DNA of 64,000 nt from Alphaproteobacteria bacterium (lineage in GTDB: Bacteria > Pseudomonadota > Alphaproteobacteria > Rs-D84): positions 210,165 to 274,164 of the forward strand of contig JAVBUT010000002.1 in NCBI GenBank assembly GCA_031555055.1, read 5' to 3'. The notes beneath the pieces are model-generated. The model saw only the letters and a list, made by a program, of their open reading frames with translations, was not told the origin of the DNA and searched no databases. The translations under genes were made by a program, and so were the position numbers. Positions 3,453-62,544 of the stretch are shown piece after piece (position 1 is the first letter of the stretch; each line of letters opens with the position of its first letter).

Positions 3453-4205
3453 ATGGTTAAAAATAAAAAAGTCGCAAGACAAAAATTAAAAGAAGTGAAA
3501 AAAGACGATCGTGCTTGGGGCCTGTTGAAGGTTCTGCGCGCGACCGGGTTGTTCCGCTGGGAACGCGAATCGACCAAATCGGAATGGGTATTGGATGTTC
3601 TGACGCATGGGATCGGAATCGGTCTGGCGATCGCGGGTCTGACACTGTTGGTGGTGTTCGCGGTTCTAAAAGGCGATCCTTGGGCGGTGACAAGCTGTGC
3701 GATTTTTGGTCTTACCATGTTCACATTATATTTCGGATCGACGATGTGCCATGTGTCGATTGGGCAAAAATCTGAATGCTTTTTCGAAGTCTGGGATTCG
3801 GTCGCGATATATGCGCTGATCGCGGGAACATACACGCCGTTCCTGTTGGTTAATCTGCGCGGGCCGCTGGGCTGGACAGTGTTCGGCATACTGTGGGCGA
3901 TCGTGATATTCGGCGCCGTTATGAAAATAAAGTCACCACGCCGCCAGCCGAAATGGATGGTCGTGCTGTATCTGGTCATGGGCTGGACAATGGTGTTTAT
4001 TCTGCCCGCGATGATCAAATATATCCCTGTGCGCGGCATGTGGTGGATATTGGCGGGTGGCCTGTCGTATTCATTGGGTGTTATATTCTATATGTGGCGC
4101 AAGATGAAGTATTCGCACGCGATCTGGCATCTGTTTGTGATAGGTGGATCGGTATGCTTCTTTTTCGCGGTCCTGTTTGGATCAATAATTGATTATGTCG
4201 GATAA
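3453..4205 (+). CDS. hemolysin III family (HlyIII/PAQR) membrane protein
   Basis: Seven predicted TM segments. Conserved motifs EW..DVLTHGIG, CHVS, AGTYTPF and HAIWHLFV. GGAGG RBS at 3445-3449, ATG at 3453. Confidence 0.8.
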   Translation: MVKNKKVARQKLKEVKKDDRAWGLLKVLRATGLFRWERESTKSEWVLDVLTHGIGIGLAIAGLTLLVVFAVLKGDPWAVTSCAIFGLTMFTLYFGSTMCHVSIGQKSECFFEVWDSVAIYALIAGTYTPFLLVNLRGPLGWTVFGILWAIVIFGAVMKIKSPRRQPKWMVVLYLVMGWTMVFILPAMIKYIPVRGMWWILAGGLSYSLGVIFYMWRKMKYSHAIWHLFVIGGSVCFFFAVLFGSIIDYVG

Positions 4206-4210
4206 AAAAT

Positions 4211-4241
4211 AAAACCGCTGAAACAGCGGTTTTATTTTTTT
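4211..4241. terminator. bidirectional rho-independent terminator between convergent genes
   Basis: aaaaccgctgaaacagcggtttt hairpin flanked by A and T runs. Confidence 0.7.
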
Positions 4242-8478: not shown

Positions 8479-8526
8479 TATGCACTGTTTTGTCATTTAC
8501 TATCTTGTAATAGCGAATGTATATAG

Positions 8527-8612
8527 GGGCGGATCATATCCGCCCCTACGGTTTCGGTTTACGGTTCATGGCCAATGAAAAACAGGGCGCAAATATGCGC
8601 CCCTACTATAAT
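8527..8612. repeat. two taggggcg...cgcccctac palindromic hairpins (REP-like)
   Basis: Sequences taggggcggatcatatccgcccctac and cagggcgcaaatatgcgcccctac. Same motif recurs at 42.59, 53.09, 54.30 and 62.43 kb. Confidence 0.6.
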
Positions 8613-42436: not shown

Positions 42437-42565
42437 AATTAAATACAACAACGCATTTGGCGCGATTTGGGGTGGCTTATGTATGTTCAATACACTACGC
42501 CACCCCAAATCACACCAACTACATCATTCTCTTTAATTTTAACAGCCCGGTTTTGGGCCGTTTTT
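42437..42565 (+). repeat. family-C stop-codon-adjacent element directly 3 prime of the secretin gene
   Basis: taaaattaaatacaacaacgcatttggcgcgatttggggtggcttatgtatgttcaatacactacgccaccccaaatcac...cattctctttaattttaacagcccgg. 93% identical to 63758-63885. Confidence 0.75.
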
Positions 42566-42570
42566 AATTT

Positions 42571-42620
42571 AGTCAATAGTCTTTAGTCACTAGTAGGGGC
42601 GCATATTTGCGCCCGTATGT
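42571..42620. repeat. family-B half element (tagtca repeats + taggggcgcatatttgcgccc hairpin)
   Basis: agtcaatagtctttagtcactagtaggggcgcatatttgcgcccgtatg. Compare 62397-62544. Confidence 0.6.
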
Positions 42621-43695: not shown

Positions 43696-43730
43696 GAAAA
43701 AAACGGCCCGTTGGGCCGTTTTTTATTTTA
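43696..43730 (-). terminator. rho-independent terminator of rpsT
   Basis: aaaaaaacggcccgttgggccgtttttt. Confidence 0.7.
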
Positions 43731-46973: not shown

Positions 46974-47315
46974 ACATCGTAATGTCAATACAGTGTCTAT
47001 ACACGTGGCGGAAATCCGGTAAAAAACCGAATCGGTGTCAAAAAATAAATCTGAAATTTTTCGACCAGAAAAACTTGCAAATCAAAAATAATCTTATAAC
47101 TTAACTGACGTATCCAAACGATTGAGAAATCAATCAGAATATGAACGATAAAGGTTGTAAGAAAAAACAATTTTTTTAATGGCTAAATAAAACCGCCGGT
47201 AAAAAAATTGTTTTTTTCTTAGGTGGTTTTTACAGCCTTGATCAGGATGCGGCAGGAAACTCTGGGGTTGGGCGATATCTGTTGTCGCCATTGGGAACAG
47301 GAAAGGAGAAACAGC

Positions 47316-48590
47316 ATGCAGGCAGCAGCAAAACAAACGGTTACAAATGTGGAATCAATAATGGCGGCAATTGCCGCAAAGATTGATCCCGCGGCGTTTA
47401 AATCCTGGATCGCCCCATGCAAATTATCTGTTCAAAACAATACCCTGTTCATTCATTCTAACAATCAATTTTCCGCCGACTTTATCAAATCCGTTTATTC
47501 CAACACTTTGGGCGACGTCGCCGACGAATTCGGATTGGGTCTGTTCATATGCGTTAACGGCGCATGCGCCCCGGCCGCACGCACGGCAAACGACAATACC
47601 GTAAAAACATTCGTGCCGGCTGCACCGGTTGCCACGACCACAACATTCGATAACTTTATCATATCTGATGAAAACGCATTCGTTGTTTCCGCATGCAAGA
47701 AAATGGCGTCTGGCGCGGCGACTTTTTCACCGCTGTTTATATATGGCGCGGCGGGATGCGGGAAATCATTGCTGGTCGATTGCATTAATTCCGAATCAGC
47801 TGGCCGCACACTGGTCATGACCGGAAACCAGTTTGTTTCCGAATTCCTGCGTGCGATGCGCGAACATTCCGTCTTTGCGTTCAAGGATTTCTGCCGAAAG
47901 TGCGACACATTCATCATGGACGATGTTCATACGCTGGCCGGCAAACGCGCGTCGCTGGACGAATTTATGAATCTGGTTATGGATTTGCGCGCTGCAAATA
48001 AAAATATTGTTCTGACATCGAATGTTGCGCCTGGCGATCTGTCCGGGTTTGACCGCCGTCTGCAATCATTGCTGGCGTCGGGATTGGTCGCAGATGTCGC
48101 GACACCGTCTAAAAATGTTGCGCGCACGATTATGGCGCGTGCCGGCGTTGCGGCGAACGTTGCCGAATATCTAGCGGGCCGCATAAACGGTGACGGTCAC
48201 TTGATTGCGGGCGTTGCCAAAAAAATCAACACGTATGCCGAACTGATGAATTCTTTGGTCACATGCGACGTCGCCGAAAGATTATTGTCTGACACATTGG
48301 TAAAATCCAAGACTCCGCTGGCCATGGTAAAATCCATGTGCGCCAGACTGGGGGTATCGTATGACGCGGTATGCGGAACATCGCGCGTGCGCAATGTCGT
48401 CCGTGCGCGCCAGATTATGATGACCGCGCTGAAGTCTGCGACTTCGCTATCGCTGGCGGAAATCGGACGTCTGGTCGGCGACCGTGATCACGCGACGGTT
48501 CTGTATGCGATTTCGACAACCGCAAAATTAAAATCATCCGATCTGATTCTGGGCGCAGAAATCGACCAGATGATTGCCGAATGCAGATAA
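47316..48590 (+). CDS. dnaA: chromosomal replication initiator DnaA (divergent)
   Basis: TFDNFIISDEN...PLFIYGAAGCGKSLL (Walker A), FIMDDVH (Walker B), arginine finger, and domain IV SRVRNVVRARQIMM...GDRDHATVLYA. RBS GAAAGGAGAAAC. 424 aa. Confidence 0.8.
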   Translation: MQAAAKQTVTNVESIMAAIAAKIDPAAFKSWIAPCKLSVQNNTLFIHSNNQFSADFIKSVYSNTLGDVADEFGLGLFICVNGACAPAARTANDNTVKTFVPAAPVATTTTFDNFIISDENAFVVSACKKMASGAATFSPLFIYGAAGCGKSLLVDCINSESAGRTLVMTGNQFVSEFLRAMREHSVFAFKDFCRKCDTFIMDDVHTLAGKRASLDEFMNLVMDLRAANKNIVLTSNVAPGDLSGFDRRLQSLLASGLVADVATPSKNVARTIMARAGVAANVAEYLAGRINGDGHLIAGVAKKINTYAELMNSLVTCDVAERLLSDTLVKSKTPLAMVKSMCARLGVSYDAVCGTSRVRNVVRARQIMMTALKSATSLSLAEIGRLVGDRDHATVLYAISTTAKLKSSDLILGAEIDQMIAECR

Positions 48591-48598
48591 TTCCGAAT

Positions 48599-49227
48599 TG
48601 GGTAGCGCGACCTTGTCCCAAGGTCGCACGTGACAACCTTGGGACAAGGTTGTCCTACCATTTTCAAGTTAAATGAAAAAATGCAAAACGATGATATATT
48701 TTTCAGAAAGAAATTAGATCATGAAATTCCATATTGGGTTAAGTCGGATTCAATATTTTTTATAACAATAAATACATTGCCACGTGGAAAAAATAATCTT
48801 GCGACTTTTAATATTTCGAAAATAATTAGAGATAGTCTGCGATTTTATCAATCAAAAGGTTTGATATATGTTGAATATTTACTGCTGATGCCGGATCATT
48901 TGCATATGCTGGTCGCATTTAATGATATCCCTATGGAAAAATTTATACAACAATGGAAAAAATATATTTCCAGAAATACAAAGGTTGAATGGCAGCGTGA
49001 TTTTTTTGATCATCGGATACGAAATGGCGAATCTTTGCAAGAAAAAATAGATTATATATCAAATAATCCAGTTCGTAAAAATTTTGTGGTTAATTCGTTT
49101 GATTGGAAGTATCAGTGGTTGAGAGGGATGCATGAATTATCAGATTTTGATTTAGGATCATAATTAGGCATGACCGGTTTGTCCCAAACTGGTCATGTGC
49201 GACCTTGGGGACAAGGTCGCGCTACCC
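48599..49227 (+). mobile_element. REP-RAYT-REP unit: IS200/IS605-like HUH tyrosine transposase (RAYT) flanked by inverted pairs of REP hairpins
   Basis: Left gggtagcgcgaccttgtcccaaggtcgc + gacaaccttgggacaaggttgtc. Right catgaccggtttgtcccaaactggtcatg + gcgaccttggggacaaggtcgcgctaccc. The outermost arms are mutually inverted. Confidence 0.7.
48681..49163 (+). CDS. REP-associated tyrosine transposase (RAYT, IS200-like TnpA)
   Basis: HUH motif MPDHLHMLV. RAYT-type motif WQRDFFDHRIRN with downstream catalytic Tyr region (EKIDYISNNP). About 30% GC. Confidence 0.7.
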   Translation: MQNDDIFFRKKLDHEIPYWVKSDSIFFITINTLPRGKNNLATFNISKIIRDSLRFYQSKGLIYVEYLLLMPDHLHMLVAFNDIPMEKFIQQWKKYISRNTKVEWQRDFFDHRIRNGESLQEKIDYISNNPVRKNFVVNSFDWKYQWLRGMHELSDFDLGS

Positions 49228-49303
49228 GAGAGCGCTTCACTAAAGGACTTTTATTATACGGTTTTTTCTGATATAATGTCAGCATCAAATAGGGAGTTTT
49301 AGG

Positions 49304-50731
49304 ATGAAGAAATTAGCTGTTTTTTCAGTTTTCTTAGGCGTATTGGGTGTGTTTGGTGCCGGACATGCGAAGTCTTGTACTCTGCAGTCTTGTGATACAA
49401 GTAGCCTTACAGCCGGATGGTTGCGCGCGCAATATCCGGATGGGACCCAGTGTTATTGGTGCGGTGGAGTTTCTTCAAATAATTGTGAAAACGGAACAAA
49501 CGTTGCGGTTATAAATGGTTTGGGCAACATTACCAATATTTACGAATGTGATACAGGTTGGACAAATGGCTGGAGAGAAAATAATCCCGGCAAATTTTGT
49601 AATAATTCGGACTTAAAAGGCGAAAGTTTAAGTTCAATAAAATTAAATAATACGGACATGTATTATAGCTTGGATGGCGGGATAAAAACAACAGGTTATA
49701 TTTCTGGTGATGCGACAGTTCTTAAAGCCGGTAACATAGCTTGCATTGTGGTGAAATGTAAATCAGGATACGAACCGAATGTAGCAAAAACAGCCTGTGT
49801 AGAAGTTGGCCGCGGCAGTTGCGAAGCCAGAACACATATGAAATGGGATGCAGGAAAATGCATTTGTAAAACGCTGGGAGAGGTGGAAACATCCGATAAA
49901 GCAAGATGTGTTGATCCAAAAAAGTTAGCTAAAGAGGAAGAATGCAGAAAGGGTGGCGCAACATTTGATGGCCTAGATGGATGTGTTTGCAAAGACCGTG
50001 CTTTTGGGACAGGACAAGTATGGAACGATACGCAAAAAAAATGCGTATTGTCTGATGAAGAATTAAAAGCACAAAAGGACAAAGCAACAGAAGAACTGGA
50101 AAAGCGCCGCAAAAACTGTACAACAGACAAAGCAAAAGCGTCCGGTGCGTCATGGAATGGGAGAACGTGTCAGTGCGGCGCCACCAAGGGGTGGGTTGAA
50201 TCGCGCGGAGAATGTGTATTGAATGCAAAAGTTGTTGCGTGTAACGCCCTGCGCGATCGTGGTATCAAGGTGGATTGGAGCGAATTGCAGAACGACTGTG
50301 TATGTACAGAAAACGGCTATCGGATGAATGATGCTAAGACGGATTGTATAGAAAGTTCCGACGCAAGACAAGCGCGCGAAGATAAGCAAAAACAAGAAGA
50401 AGCAGACAAGGCGGAAAAGGCACGCTTGGAAATAGAAAGGAGAAGCAAGACAACGATAACAGTTATTACGGATACTTCGAAAAAGTTGACCGATATCGGC
50501 AGTGCCCACTTTGACGTCAGCGCATGGAAAACAGCCGAAGGTACATTTAATACTTCGCGTTTGATTTCGGATTCTGTTGCGGGTGTCGTGCTGGGGACGG
50601 CCGGTGGATTAATCACCAGTAACGTTATCAAAAACAATCAGGTCGACAGCGGATTTGATGATATATCATGTACCGTCGGCGGCCAGGTCGTCGCCGGATG
50701 GGGCGATCAGTTCAGGGTTGGAATAAGATAA
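49304..50731 (+). CDS. secreted Cys-rich repeat protein with central Lys/Glu coiled-coil segment
   Basis: Signal peptide. More than 40 Cys in recurrent C-x-C, W.G..C and G.C.C patterns. No confident family. Confidence 0.45.
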   Translation: MKKLAVFSVFLGVLGVFGAGHAKSCTLQSCDTSSLTAGWLRAQYPDGTQCYWCGGVSSNNCENGTNVAVINGLGNITNIYECDTGWTNGWRENNPGKFCNNSDLKGESLSSIKLNNTDMYYSLDGGIKTTGYISGDATVLKAGNIACIVVKCKSGYEPNVAKTACVEVGRGSCEARTHMKWDAGKCICKTLGEVETSDKARCVDPKKLAKEEECRKGGATFDGLDGCVCKDRAFGTGQVWNDTQKKCVLSDEELKAQKDKATEELEKRRKNCTTDKAKASGASWNGRTCQCGATKGWVESRGECVLNAKVVACNALRDRGIKVDWSELQNDCVCTENGYRMNDAKTDCIESSDARQAREDKQKQEEADKAEKARLEIERRSKTTITVITDTSKKLTDIGSAHFDVSAWKTAEGTFNTSRLISDSVAGVVLGTAGGLITSNVIKNNQVDSGFDDISCTVGGQVVAGWGDQFRVGIR

Positions 50732-50759
50732 AAAAATCCGGCGGATGCCGGATTTTTTT
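50731..50759 (+). terminator. rho-independent terminator
   Basis: aaaaaatccggcggatgccggattttttt. Confidence 0.7.
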
Positions 50760-50761
50760 AA

Positions 50762-50985
50762 ATGAAAAATGAAGAATGAAAAATGAAAAATGAAAAATGA
50801 AGAATGAAGAATGAAAAATGAAGAATGAAAAATGAAAAGTGAGGAACAAAATAGAATATAAAAGTTATAAAAGTACAGAGTAAAGATATTATGAATCACT
50901 CTGTACTTTTGTAACTATTAAATAATAACTGTTGTGCGTAAAATCACTGATTACTTTTCATTTTTCATTCTTCATTTTTCATTTA
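50762..50985. repeat. composite palindromic heptamer element: 12 tandem ATGAA(A/G)A units, a central 13-bp-stem hairpin, then 4 inverted TTTTCAT units
   Basis: atgaaaa atgaaga ... x12 at 50762-50845. Hairpin aaaagtacagagt...actctgtactttt at about 50870-50912. ttttcatttttcattcttcatttttcattt at 50955-50984. Confidence 0.7.
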
Positions 50986-53069: not shown

Positions 53070-53083
53070 GTTTTTATTCCCGT

Positions 53084-53132
53084 AGGGGCGGCTGGAAAGC
53101 CGCCCAGGGCGCGTTTCCACGCGCCCCTACAA
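53084..53132. repeat. nested taggggcg...cgcccctac palindromic element in the parE 5 prime leader
   Basis: gtaggggcggctggaaagccgcccagggcgcgtttccacgcgcccctac. Confidence 0.6.
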
Positions 53133-54304: not shown

Positions 54305-54330
54305 GTAGGGGCGCATATTTGCGCCCCGGG
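54305..54330. repeat. taggggcgcatatttgcgcccc palindromic hairpin upstream of dnaJ
   Basis: gtaggggcgcatatttgcgccccggggc. Same core as 42.59 and 62.43 kb. Confidence 0.6.
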
Positions 54331-54369
54331 GCACAAGAATATGCCACTACAAAGGTTTGGTCAAAAAAT

Positions 54370-55497
54370 ATGAACAAAAATCCATATGAAGTCTTGGGTG
54401 TGGCGCGCGACGCGTCGGACGCGGATATTAAAAAAGCGTATCATAAACTGGTTATGAAACATCATCCTGATAAAAATCAGGGCGATAAGGCATCCGAAGA
54501 AAAATTCAAAGAAATCAACAACGCATTCGATATTCTGAAAGACCCGCAAAAACGCGCGGCATACGATCGCTTTGGCGACGCGGCTTTTGCCGGCGGAAAT
54601 GGCGCGTCCGCCGGTATGGGGGGCAATCCGTTCGGCGGCGCCGGCGGTTTCCATTTCGATATGGGCGGCGGCATGGGTGGCATGGAAGATATTATCAGGG
54701 AAGCCATGCGCGGTTTCGGATTTGCCGGGGATATGGGCGGCGGTCAGACGCGTGAAATGCGCGGACGGGATTTACTGGACGAAGTTGTAATTGATTTGCG
54801 TGATGCATATTTCGGAAAAACGCACACTGTGAAATTTTCATCCAATGTGAAATGCGAAAAGTGCGACGGTCACGGTACTGACGACGGAAAGTCCGCGCCA
54901 AAATGCGAACGCTGTCATGGTGCCGGCACCATTCACCAAAGCCGTGGATTTTTCGCAGTAGAGACGCCTTGCCCGGAATGCCAGGGTCTGGGGCGTAAAA
55001 TCAAAAAGAAATGTTCGTCGTGCGAAGGCACCGGAACCGTTCACAAACAAAGAACACTGGAAGTAAAAATACCGGCCGGCGTCGCGGACGGAACACGGTT
55101 GCGTCTGGCGGGCCAGGGCGAAGCCGGTCAAAACGGCGCGCCGGCCGGTGATTTCTATGTCGATATCCGCGTGCGCCCCAATGCAAAGTTCGACCGTGTC
55201 GGCAACGACTTGTTAATGCGCGAAAACGTTCCGTTTACGACATTGGCGTTGGGTGGCGAAATCGAAATCGAAACGATTGATGATAAAAAACTGTCGGTCA
55301 AGGTTCCGGCGGGTACCCAAATCGGTGAAAAACTGCGCGTGCGTGGCCACGGAATGCCAACAGGGCGCGGCGATCACTTTGGCGATTTGTATATTGATGT
55401 CGCAATGATTGTTCCGACCAAGTTAAACGAAAAGCAAAAGAAAGCATTGAACGAATTCTCGGCGAACACTAAATCCGATAAAAAGGGTTGGTTTTAA
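54370..55497 (+). CDS. dnaJ: molecular chaperone DnaJ
   Basis: J domain with HPD (YHKLVMKHHPDKN), Gly-rich region, four CxxCxGxG zinc-finger repeats and C-terminal domain. No dnaK immediately upstream. Confidence 0.9.
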   Translation: MNKNPYEVLGVARDASDADIKKAYHKLVMKHHPDKNQGDKASEEKFKEINNAFDILKDPQKRAAYDRFGDAAFAGGNGASAGMGGNPFGGAGGFHFDMGGGMGGMEDIIREAMRGFGFAGDMGGGQTREMRGRDLLDEVVIDLRDAYFGKTHTVKFSSNVKCEKCDGHGTDDGKSAPKCERCHGAGTIHQSRGFFAVETPCPECQGLGRKIKKKCSSCEGTGTVHKQRTLEVKIPAGVADGTRLRLAGQGEAGQNGAPAGDFYVDIRVRPNAKFDRVGNDLLMRENVPFTTLALGGEIEIETIDDKKLSVKVPAGTQIGEKLRVRGHGMPTGRGDHFGDLYIDVAMIVPTKLNEKQKKALNEFSANTKSDKKGWF

Positions 55498-55556
55498 ATC
55501 ACCCGCCCCAAAGGGGCGGGTGATTTAAAAAAAATCCCGCGGCGCGGGATTTTTTA
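55497..55556 (+). terminator. tandem rho-independent terminator hairpins after dnaJ
   Basis: aaatcacccgccccaaaggggcgggtgattt and aaatcccgcggcgcgggatttttt. Confidence 0.7.
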
Positions 55557-62396: not shown

Positions 62397-62544
62397 TAGT
62401 CATTAGTCTTTGGTCAATAGTCATTAGTAGGGGCGCATATTTGCGCCCATATGATTTCATATCATGGTTTACAAAACATGGCGAATTTACATTCGCCCCT
62501 ACTAATGACTATTGACTAATGACTATTGACTAACGACTATTGAC
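62397..62544. repeat. family-B composite palindromic element: tagtca-rich inverted arms around a taggggcgcatatttgcgccc hairpin
   Basis: Left arm gtcattagtctttggtcaatagtcattagtaggggcg versus right arm cgcccctactaatgactattgactaatgactattgac. Confidence 0.65.

Follow-up and report, generated by a model that had tools for sequence, protein, structure and literature searches.

A probable REPtron directly downstream of dnaA in an uncultured alphaproteobacterial lineage

Our analysis concerns a 628-bp cassette that lies just downstream of dnaA in a 64-kb stretch of an alphaproteobacterial genome (contig JAVBUT010000002.1 of GenBank assembly GCA_031555055.1; the whole stretch that was analysed, 64,000 nucleotides in length, is called the window below). 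The cassette, at window positions 48600-49227, consists of a doublet of repetitive extragenic palindromes (REPs), an open reading frame (ORF) of 160 amino acids (aa), and a second REP doublet. We conclude, with a probability of close to nine in ten, that this locus is a standard REPtron, in which a single gene for a REP-associated tyrosine transposase (RAYT, or TnpA_REP) carries a REPIN, an inverted pair of REPs, on each side. The definition of the REPtron, the need for the tetranucleotide GTAG in binding and/or cleavage of the REP, and cleavage at CT are taken from earlier work on these systems, in which GTAG acts like the guide tetranucleotide of IS608 (PMC8266576). The annotation is useful, as the database proteins at this locus are unnamed or 'hypothetical', and the locus adds one more case, from alphaproteobacteria that have not been cultured, to a system that is already well known.

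The RAYT gene occupies 48681-49163 on the + strand and encodes 160 aa from its ATG; a mechanical ORF reaches back to GTG 48630 (177 aa), and the orthologues begin at the MQ position. The protein scores 87.5 bits against the curated NCBIfam model NF047646 (REP_Tyr_transpos; cut-off 80), and barely passes Pfam Y1_Tnp (PF01797; 25.1 bits, cut-off 23). A phmmer search of all sequences in the PDB returned a sole significant match, the Escherichia coli TnpArep 4ER8 (E=5e-8). In the alignment of the two proteins the residues H73-L74-H75 of the motif PDHLHMLV (encoded at 48891-48914, with the HUH codons at 48897-48905) fall on the HMH of the E. coli enzyme, the RAYT motif WQRDFFDHRIRN (48990-49025) falls on WQPRFWEHAIRN, and Tyr125 (codon 49053-49055) falls on Tyr115 of the DYI motif; all three features are read from the + strand. 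Both histidines, the tyrosine and the residues of the RAYT motif are invariant in an alignment of 11 sequences that includes ten homologues of 47-68% identity. An AlphaFold2 model of the protein (pLDDT 83.9) places Tyr125 in a predicted helix spanning residues 119-127, and a Foldseek search with this model ranks 4ER8 first (TMq 0.66), with the TnpA proteins of IS200, IS608 and ISDra2 at ~0.41-0.49. The 651 homologues found for the protein include many that are called RayT by their sources. Membership of the RAYT family is thus established by both sequence and fold, and the catalytic residues are in place. The gene is also strikingly AT-rich, at 29.6% GC against 46.5% in the rest of the window, where only 0.5% of 483-nucleotide (nt) segments are as low as 30% GC.

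The four hairpins that bracket the gene are two inverted pairs. The outermost on the left, L1 (48600-48627, + strand), reads GGGTAGC-GCGACCTTG-TCC-CAAGGTCGC, with its GTAG head at 48602-48605 and a perfect 9-bp stem (48607-48615 with 48619-48627) closed by the loop TCC. Its partner L2 (48630-48659, - strand) is inverted relative to it and reads GACAACCTTG-GGA-CAAGGTTGTC-CTACC on the + strand, so that the head appears as CTAC at 48655-48658 beside a 10-bp stem (48632-48641 with 48645-48654). Together they form the left REPIN: the 24-nt arms are 88% complementary and 11 nt apart, and the centroid fold is one long hairpin. On the right, R1 (49169-49197, + strand; CATGACCGGTTTG-TCC-CAAACTGGTCATG) is degenerate, with a 13-bp stem that includes one G-T pair, the loop TCC and the apical sequence TTG-TCC-CAA retained. 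R2 (49199-49227, - strand) reads GCGACCTTG-GGGA-CAAGGTCGC-GCTACCC and has a 9-bp stem (49199-49207 with 49212-49220), a 4-nt loop and the head CTAC at 49222-49225; it is near-identical to the reverse complement of L1, with one extra base in the loop, and the outermost arms of the cassette (48600-48619 and 49208-49227) form a perfect 20-nt inverted repeat. Three of the four hairpins (L1, L2 and R2) bear the GTAG head, and the right doublet qualifies as a REPIN only in part, R1 having diverged. Folded as single-stranded DNA, the four hairpins give z-scores of -5.9 to -7.0, with none of 200 shuffled sequences folding equally well, and 100 shuffles of the window gave an expected count of 0.00 for the 21-mer hairpin.

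An earlier note on this stretch, made from its letters and ORF translations, had described a 160-aa AT-rich ORF with an HUH motif and a RAYT-specific motif between hairpin doublets whose outermost arms are mutually inverted, the whole arrangement lying 9 nt after the dnaA stop codon, and had named profile searches and an alignment of the catalytic tyrosine as checks. The profile search and the tyrosine alignment both come out in favour of a RAYT, and the ORF, the two motifs, the spacing and the inverted outer arms are all as described. The description of the doublets needs refining: both are present, each as an inverted REP pair, and one member of the right pair is degenerate.

Comparison with related genomes shows that the association of hairpins and gene is maintained. 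The closest homologues on usable contigs (L001 and L003), from metagenome-assembled genomes (MAGs) labelled Proteobacteria bacterium, are 63-65% identical to the RAYT protein. Both genes have inverted doublets on each side with the same TTG-TCC-CAA tip; the head is GGTGG in place of GGTAG, the stems differ, and in L001 the left and right REPINs look identical. In an alignment of fourteen distinct REP units from four genomes, 97.9% of the stem cells are paired, six of the ten base pairs show compensatory changes, and the nine apical bases are invariant. A scan of metagenomes with the RAYT alignment recovered one close relative (L024, the same as L001) and 79 distant loci of 38-53% identity, mainly from soil and freshwater metagenomes, which share the same plan. 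Flanks are complete at 56 of the loci: perfect hairpins of about 9 bp, each with a GTAG head and a TCC or GCC loop, stand on both sides of the gene in 44 and on at least one side in 54. The REP-RAYT-REP arrangement, for which the earlier note had argued from this one locus, is seen in the orthologues too, and at most of these loci of the wider clade.

The same REP type also occurs away from any RAYT gene. A scan with the query GCGACYTTGTCCCAARGTCGC over a collection holding one genome per species, with the window's own genome outside the collection, found 11 exact copies on 10 contigs of a related MAG, Rickettsiales bacterium Gsp477_bin73, mostly as inverted doublets, and no RAYT in the DNA fetched around these 11 copies. 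The scan also matched the two copies that flank the RAYT gene in the genome of L001, and a single doublet in the MAG Nt197P3bin125 (L009, 1392-1449) that has one GTAG and one GTGG head; a single genome of this lineage therefore contains both variants of the head. The earlier note had held that the flanking hairpins should be repeated elsewhere, and they are, both beside RAYT orthologues in other MAGs and dispersed in Gsp477_bin73, with no further copy in the 64-kb window.

The position of the cassette was examined from the side of its neighbours. The upstream gene, dnaA (47247-48590, + strand), was given the start of a 447-aa database protein (P0122), the mechanical ORF beginning at GTG 47223; its product matches Pfam DnaA_N, Bac_DnaA and Bac_DnaA_C, and scores 248.8 bits against TIGR00362, under the cut-off of that model. 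Nine nucleotides (ttccgaatt) separate its stop codon (TAA, 48588-48590) from the cassette. Window positions 48019-50784 are 100% identical to a 2.8-kb sequence (L005) in the Logan assembly of run SRR23967709, and all of the cassette junctions are therefore reproduced. The relatives whose DnaA proteins are 65-71% identical all have dprA and dnaA in the same synteny and conserve the order plsY-x-dprA-dnaA-[slot]-Cys-rich ORF-gyrB, with gyrB on the - strand. The slot holds the REPtron here, a DUF559 ORF in L019, a 311-aa ORF in L021/L022 and a 211-nt spacer alone in L023. An extended -10 element of the downstream Cys-rich ORF (TGaTATAAT, 49269-49277, + strand) is kept in the cassette-free L019 and L023, and therefore marks the right limit of the variable slot. 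The earlier note had called the cassette 'inserted' and had suggested this comparison of the dnaA 3' flank; the term appears reasonable, since the relatives keep dnaA beside the Cys-rich ORF with another gene or nothing between them.

The occupant of the slot in L019 (5427-6173; GCA_031554955.1, the closest DnaA relative at 71%) is a 135-aa DUF559 ORF, preceded by direct repeats of a unit some 80 nt long (ggggtggactcgttaactgcggtttgagatttgttctg...) and followed by G-rich repeats. The Cys-rich ORF itself (49304-50731) encodes 475 aa with a signal-peptide-like start and without a Pfam match. Its conservation with the syntenic ORFs of L019 and L023 is confined to the C-terminal 70-110 residues (64-78% identity), and the N-terminal portion is variable.

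The RAYT orthologues of L001 and L003 are located 3' of groEL, and in all three cases, the window included, the cassette starts 9-10 nt past a stop codon. No cassette is found 3' of groEL in any of four relatives (L104-L107; GroEL 74-88% identical to that of L001), where groEL is followed immediately by a terminator of A-run, stem and T-run (for example L104 2973-3010, L105 4635-4680 and L107 4614-4645). In L003 the cassette begins 9 nt past the groEL stop (1673-1684) and, some 30 nt past the right REPIN, is followed by a terminator, aaaaaaatccgg-cgtg-ccggatttttt (region 2350-2420); this is the type of terminator that directly follows groEL at the empty sites, and the cassette is therefore inserted between the groEL stop and its terminator. 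L003 and its RAYT-free relatives make a clean pair of occupied and empty sites at groEL. The low GC content is also common to the three genomes: the RAYT genes (window 48681-49163, L001 10001-10480, L003 1774-2253) have 30-33% GC, whereas their hosts are at 46-51%. Their offset is thus -16 to -20 points, where the wider clade has a mean of -4.8. This composition is a long-held trait of the element and not a one-off mark of recent transfer into one host, because it is seen in all three genomes and the GroEL proteins of L001 and L003 are only 79% identical.

The variable site, the patchy presence and the low GC together hint that the whole cassette may have moved. A reading that goes further than the standard REPtron is that the complete REPIN-RAYT-REPIN cassette is itself mobile, as an autonomous IS200-like unit or 'mobile REPtron' that settles just past the stop codons of conserved genes, in place of a fixed and domesticated gene. 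The change of site from the 3' side of dnaA here to that of groEL in L001 and L003 speaks for it, as do the dnaA slots without the cassette (L019, L021/L022, L023), the groEL flanks without it (L104-L107, one of which has the GroEL closest to that of L001, at 88%), the place of the L003 copy between the groEL stop and a terminator of the empty-site type, the constant spacing past the stop codon, a GC offset well beyond that of the wider clade, and the near-identity of the two flanks, seen in the 20-nt inverted repeat here and in the alike REPINs of L001. We nevertheless regard mobility of the whole unit as unlikely. The window holds a single copy, and L001 and L003 have the cassette at the same groEL site with RAYT proteins only 72% identical and GroEL proteins 79%, which fits long vertical residence followed by losses. 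No evidence for mobility of tnpA_REP has been reported (PMC8266576), its inheritance was found to be mostly vertical (PMC5581495), the REP type lies scattered in Gsp477_bin73 without the gene, as expected of a classical RAYT, and a lowered GC content is general in the clade, if less marked. It is thus a tentative proposal, to which we give a small share of the probability, that this termite-gut-type alphaproteobacterial lineage harbours a still-mobile REPtron, which would move as a unit, possibly between genomes, land 9-10 nt past the stops of genes that are conserved and well expressed (dnaA, groEL) but before the terminators of these genes, and be expressed by read-through. If true, it would represent a living intermediate between the IS200-like insertion sequences and the domesticated RAYTs.

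Several observations weigh against the assignment of the locus as a standard REPtron. R1 is without the GTAG head, having TTAGGC in its place. No other copy of the cassette REP type (GGTAG-N7-TTGTCCCAA) was found inside the 64-kb window, and the REPs that are dispersed there belong to a different family (GGGCGCA), described below. The units in the covariation alignment were preselected by the tip motif and by having at most two stem mismatches, which inflates the percentage of paired cells; the compensatory changes in the stems stay informative despite this preselection. Lastly, no ribosome-binding site is recognisable for the RAYT ORF, and a promoter scan of the region gave weak matches only, one of them just 5' of the ATG (9/12 positions).

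Another reading is that the locus is an inactive relic, in which the RAYT gene and its flanking REPs persist and mobilise nothing in this genome; the missing REPs, the headless R1 and the weak expression signals would all agree with such a state. Set against these are an intact ORF that keeps every residue invariant in the alignment, and the outer hairpins L1 and R2, which are still perfect and near-identical. The absence of further REPs from the window says little, since the density in Gsp477_bin73, about 11 exact copies per genome, predicts at most about one copy per 64 kb. We consider a relic doubtful, and slightly less probable than a mobile cassette.

It is very improbable that the hairpins are host regulatory elements, a dnaA terminator or messenger RNA stabiliser beside a transposase-like gene by coincidence, for although they lie directly 3' of dnaA with no canonical terminator before the next gene, and an influence of REPs on transcription and on the stability of mRNA is known (PMC8266576), none of the four is followed by a T-run as the ordinary terminators of the window are, and in three genomes the gene stands between these same hairpins at unrelated loci, as GTAG-headed hairpins do at 44 of the 56 wider-clade loci, so that a regulatory side effect is possible yet leaves the arrangement unexplained. 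The narrower proposal that they terminate dnaA was rejected, given the lack of a T-run and a scan with 0 terminator-like sites between dnaA, the RAYT gene and the next promoter. Because no terminator separates the two genes, expression of the RAYT by read-through from dnaA is plausible. The intergenic hairpins of the window are mostly bidirectional terminators with an A-run, a GC stem and a T-run (4204-4240, 43698-43724, 50729-50760 and 55492-55555). An Rfam search of the window returned two tRNAs and nothing else. A replication origin by dnaA was likewise rejected as the cause of the cassette's location: the GC skew is positive from one end of the window to the other, and no origin or terminus switch lies inside it despite the presence of dnaA.

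The second family of GTAG-headed hairpins, GTAG-GGGCGCA-TATT-TGCGCCC, is dispersed in the window (8523-8549, 8583-8606, 42593-42614, 53082-53130, 54305-54352 and 62427-62502) and occurs in L001 (18319-18502), with variants that have GGAA, CAT or GTAA loops and several inverted doublets. Eight exact GTAGGGGCG heads are present in the window against about 0.5 expected, and among its 56 GC-rich perfect hairpins the only recurrent heads, beyond the A/T runs of terminators, are GTAG (5) and GTAG followed by C (2). These hairpins share the head of the cassette REPs and have shorter stems and different loops; in the genome of L001 the cassette type has the head GTGG and the GGGCGCA family GTAG. No RAYT for the GGGCGCA family lies inside the window. 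The doublet at 53082-53130 consists of a pair of 8-bp hairpins, separated by 1 nt and enclosed by GTAG and CTAC; it sits 13 nt upstream of the likely gyrB start (ATG 53069, - strand), and the mechanical gyrB ORF from GTG 53120 spans it. The elements at 42.6 kb and 62.4 kb (42560-42592 and 62400-62530) have extra tagtcaatagtcattag-like flanking repeats, which at 62.4 kb form longer inverted arms around the REP pair, in the shape of a miniature inverted-repeat transposable element.

Catalysis, the cleavage site and the REP substrates of the REPtron in this genome we infer by analogy with the enzymes of E. coli, Stenotrophomonas and Marinomonas, which suggest a model for its activity. The RAYT protein would be an HUH/Y1 single-stranded DNA nuclease-transferase that binds the REP when this forms a hairpin on single-stranded DNA, as it might at a replication fork. 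It would read the GTAG at the 5' base of this hairpin, and the invariant TTG-TCC-CAA tip is probably read as well. His73 and His75 are expected to hold a divalent metal ion, while Tyr125 would cut a dinucleotide beside the REP and become covalently linked to the 5' phosphate; the free 3'-OH could then be rejoined elsewhere, so that copies of the REP or REPIN are spread or removed.

Of more use than the single locus is the collection of orthologous REPtrons, which provides natural covariation in the REP stems around an invariant TTG-TCC-CAA tip. Its sharp-edged occupied and empty sites could be used to test whether tnpA_REP moves together with its REPs. Some traits of the locus are somewhat unusual, namely REPs that in the window occur only beside the gene, a variable position after a stop codon, extreme AT-richness and the GTAG/GTGG heads; they leave its classification unchanged.

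The closest solved relative is the REPtron Ec of E. coli K-12 (TnpA_REP RayT/YafM, 4ER8; REP/BIME 'group 2', where BIME stands for bacterial interspersed mosaic element). Both enzymes are HUH-Y1 proteins of about 160 aa with the HUH, the catalytic tyrosine and WQxxFxxHxIRN in register, and the E. coli structure is the best fold match, although identity in the fold alignment is only about 21%. E. coli has hundreds of dispersed REPs, whereas none was found beyond the flanks of the gene in the 64 kb analysed here. In E. coli the REP palindrome is imperfect and its bulge obligatory, in contrast to the perfect 9-10-bp stems and 3-nt loop of the REPs described here. In both systems the gene is flanked by REPs with a 5' GTAG head (PMC8266576).

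With the TnpA proteins of the IS200/IS605 family (IS200, IS608, ISDra2) the RAYT shares the HUH-Y1 fold and a gene bordered by hairpins. It matches them less well in fold and sequence than it matches TnpA_REP, carries the RAYT-specific motif and scores above the cut-off of the curated RAYT model, and its flanks are GTAG-headed REP doublets which also occur alone, in place of distinct left-end and right-end hairpins. The cassette is not built as an autonomous IS200/IS605 element would be, with several near-identical copies of gene and ends in a genome and no terminal inverted repeat: it is present once in the window, and its ends are a 20-nt perfect inverted repeat of the same REP. The locus is like the REPIN-RAYT systems of Pseudomonas fluorescens and others (Bertels & Rainey 2011; PMC3116915, PMC5581495) in that inverted doublets stand on either side of one RAYT gene and are found dispersed as well, and the dispersed doublets of Gsp477_bin73 share the form of the left REPIN here, a hairpin with 24-nt arms. 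Systems of the P. fluorescens type have tens to hundreds of REPINs and a RAYT gene held at a fixed site in vertical descent, whereas here the site differs between relatives and the distribution is patchy.

In the form of its REPs the locus resembles RAYT 'group 3' (grouping of Bertels et al. 2017 and Corneloup et al. 2021), represented by the REPtrons Sm of Stenotrophomonas maltophilia and Mb of Marinomonas, a likeness drawn from the published description of REP form (PMC8266576). The REPs of these systems are perfect palindromes with a 3-4-nt loop and a GTAG placed directly or 1-2 nt before the stem, and specific positions in the loop are essential, which parallels the invariant TTG-TCC-CAA tip found here; our stems are longer (9-10 bp against 8 or 5), with 1 nt between head and stem. 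In Marinomonas the REPs are concentrated beside tnpA_REP, which its authors read as a recent arrival, and changing GTAG to GTGG in Mb moves cleavage to CC (PMC8266576). Among the orthologous REPtrons compared here both heads occur naturally, and both are present in the one doublet of L009; these natural variants bear on the guide-tetranucleotide model of how the cleavage site is chosen.

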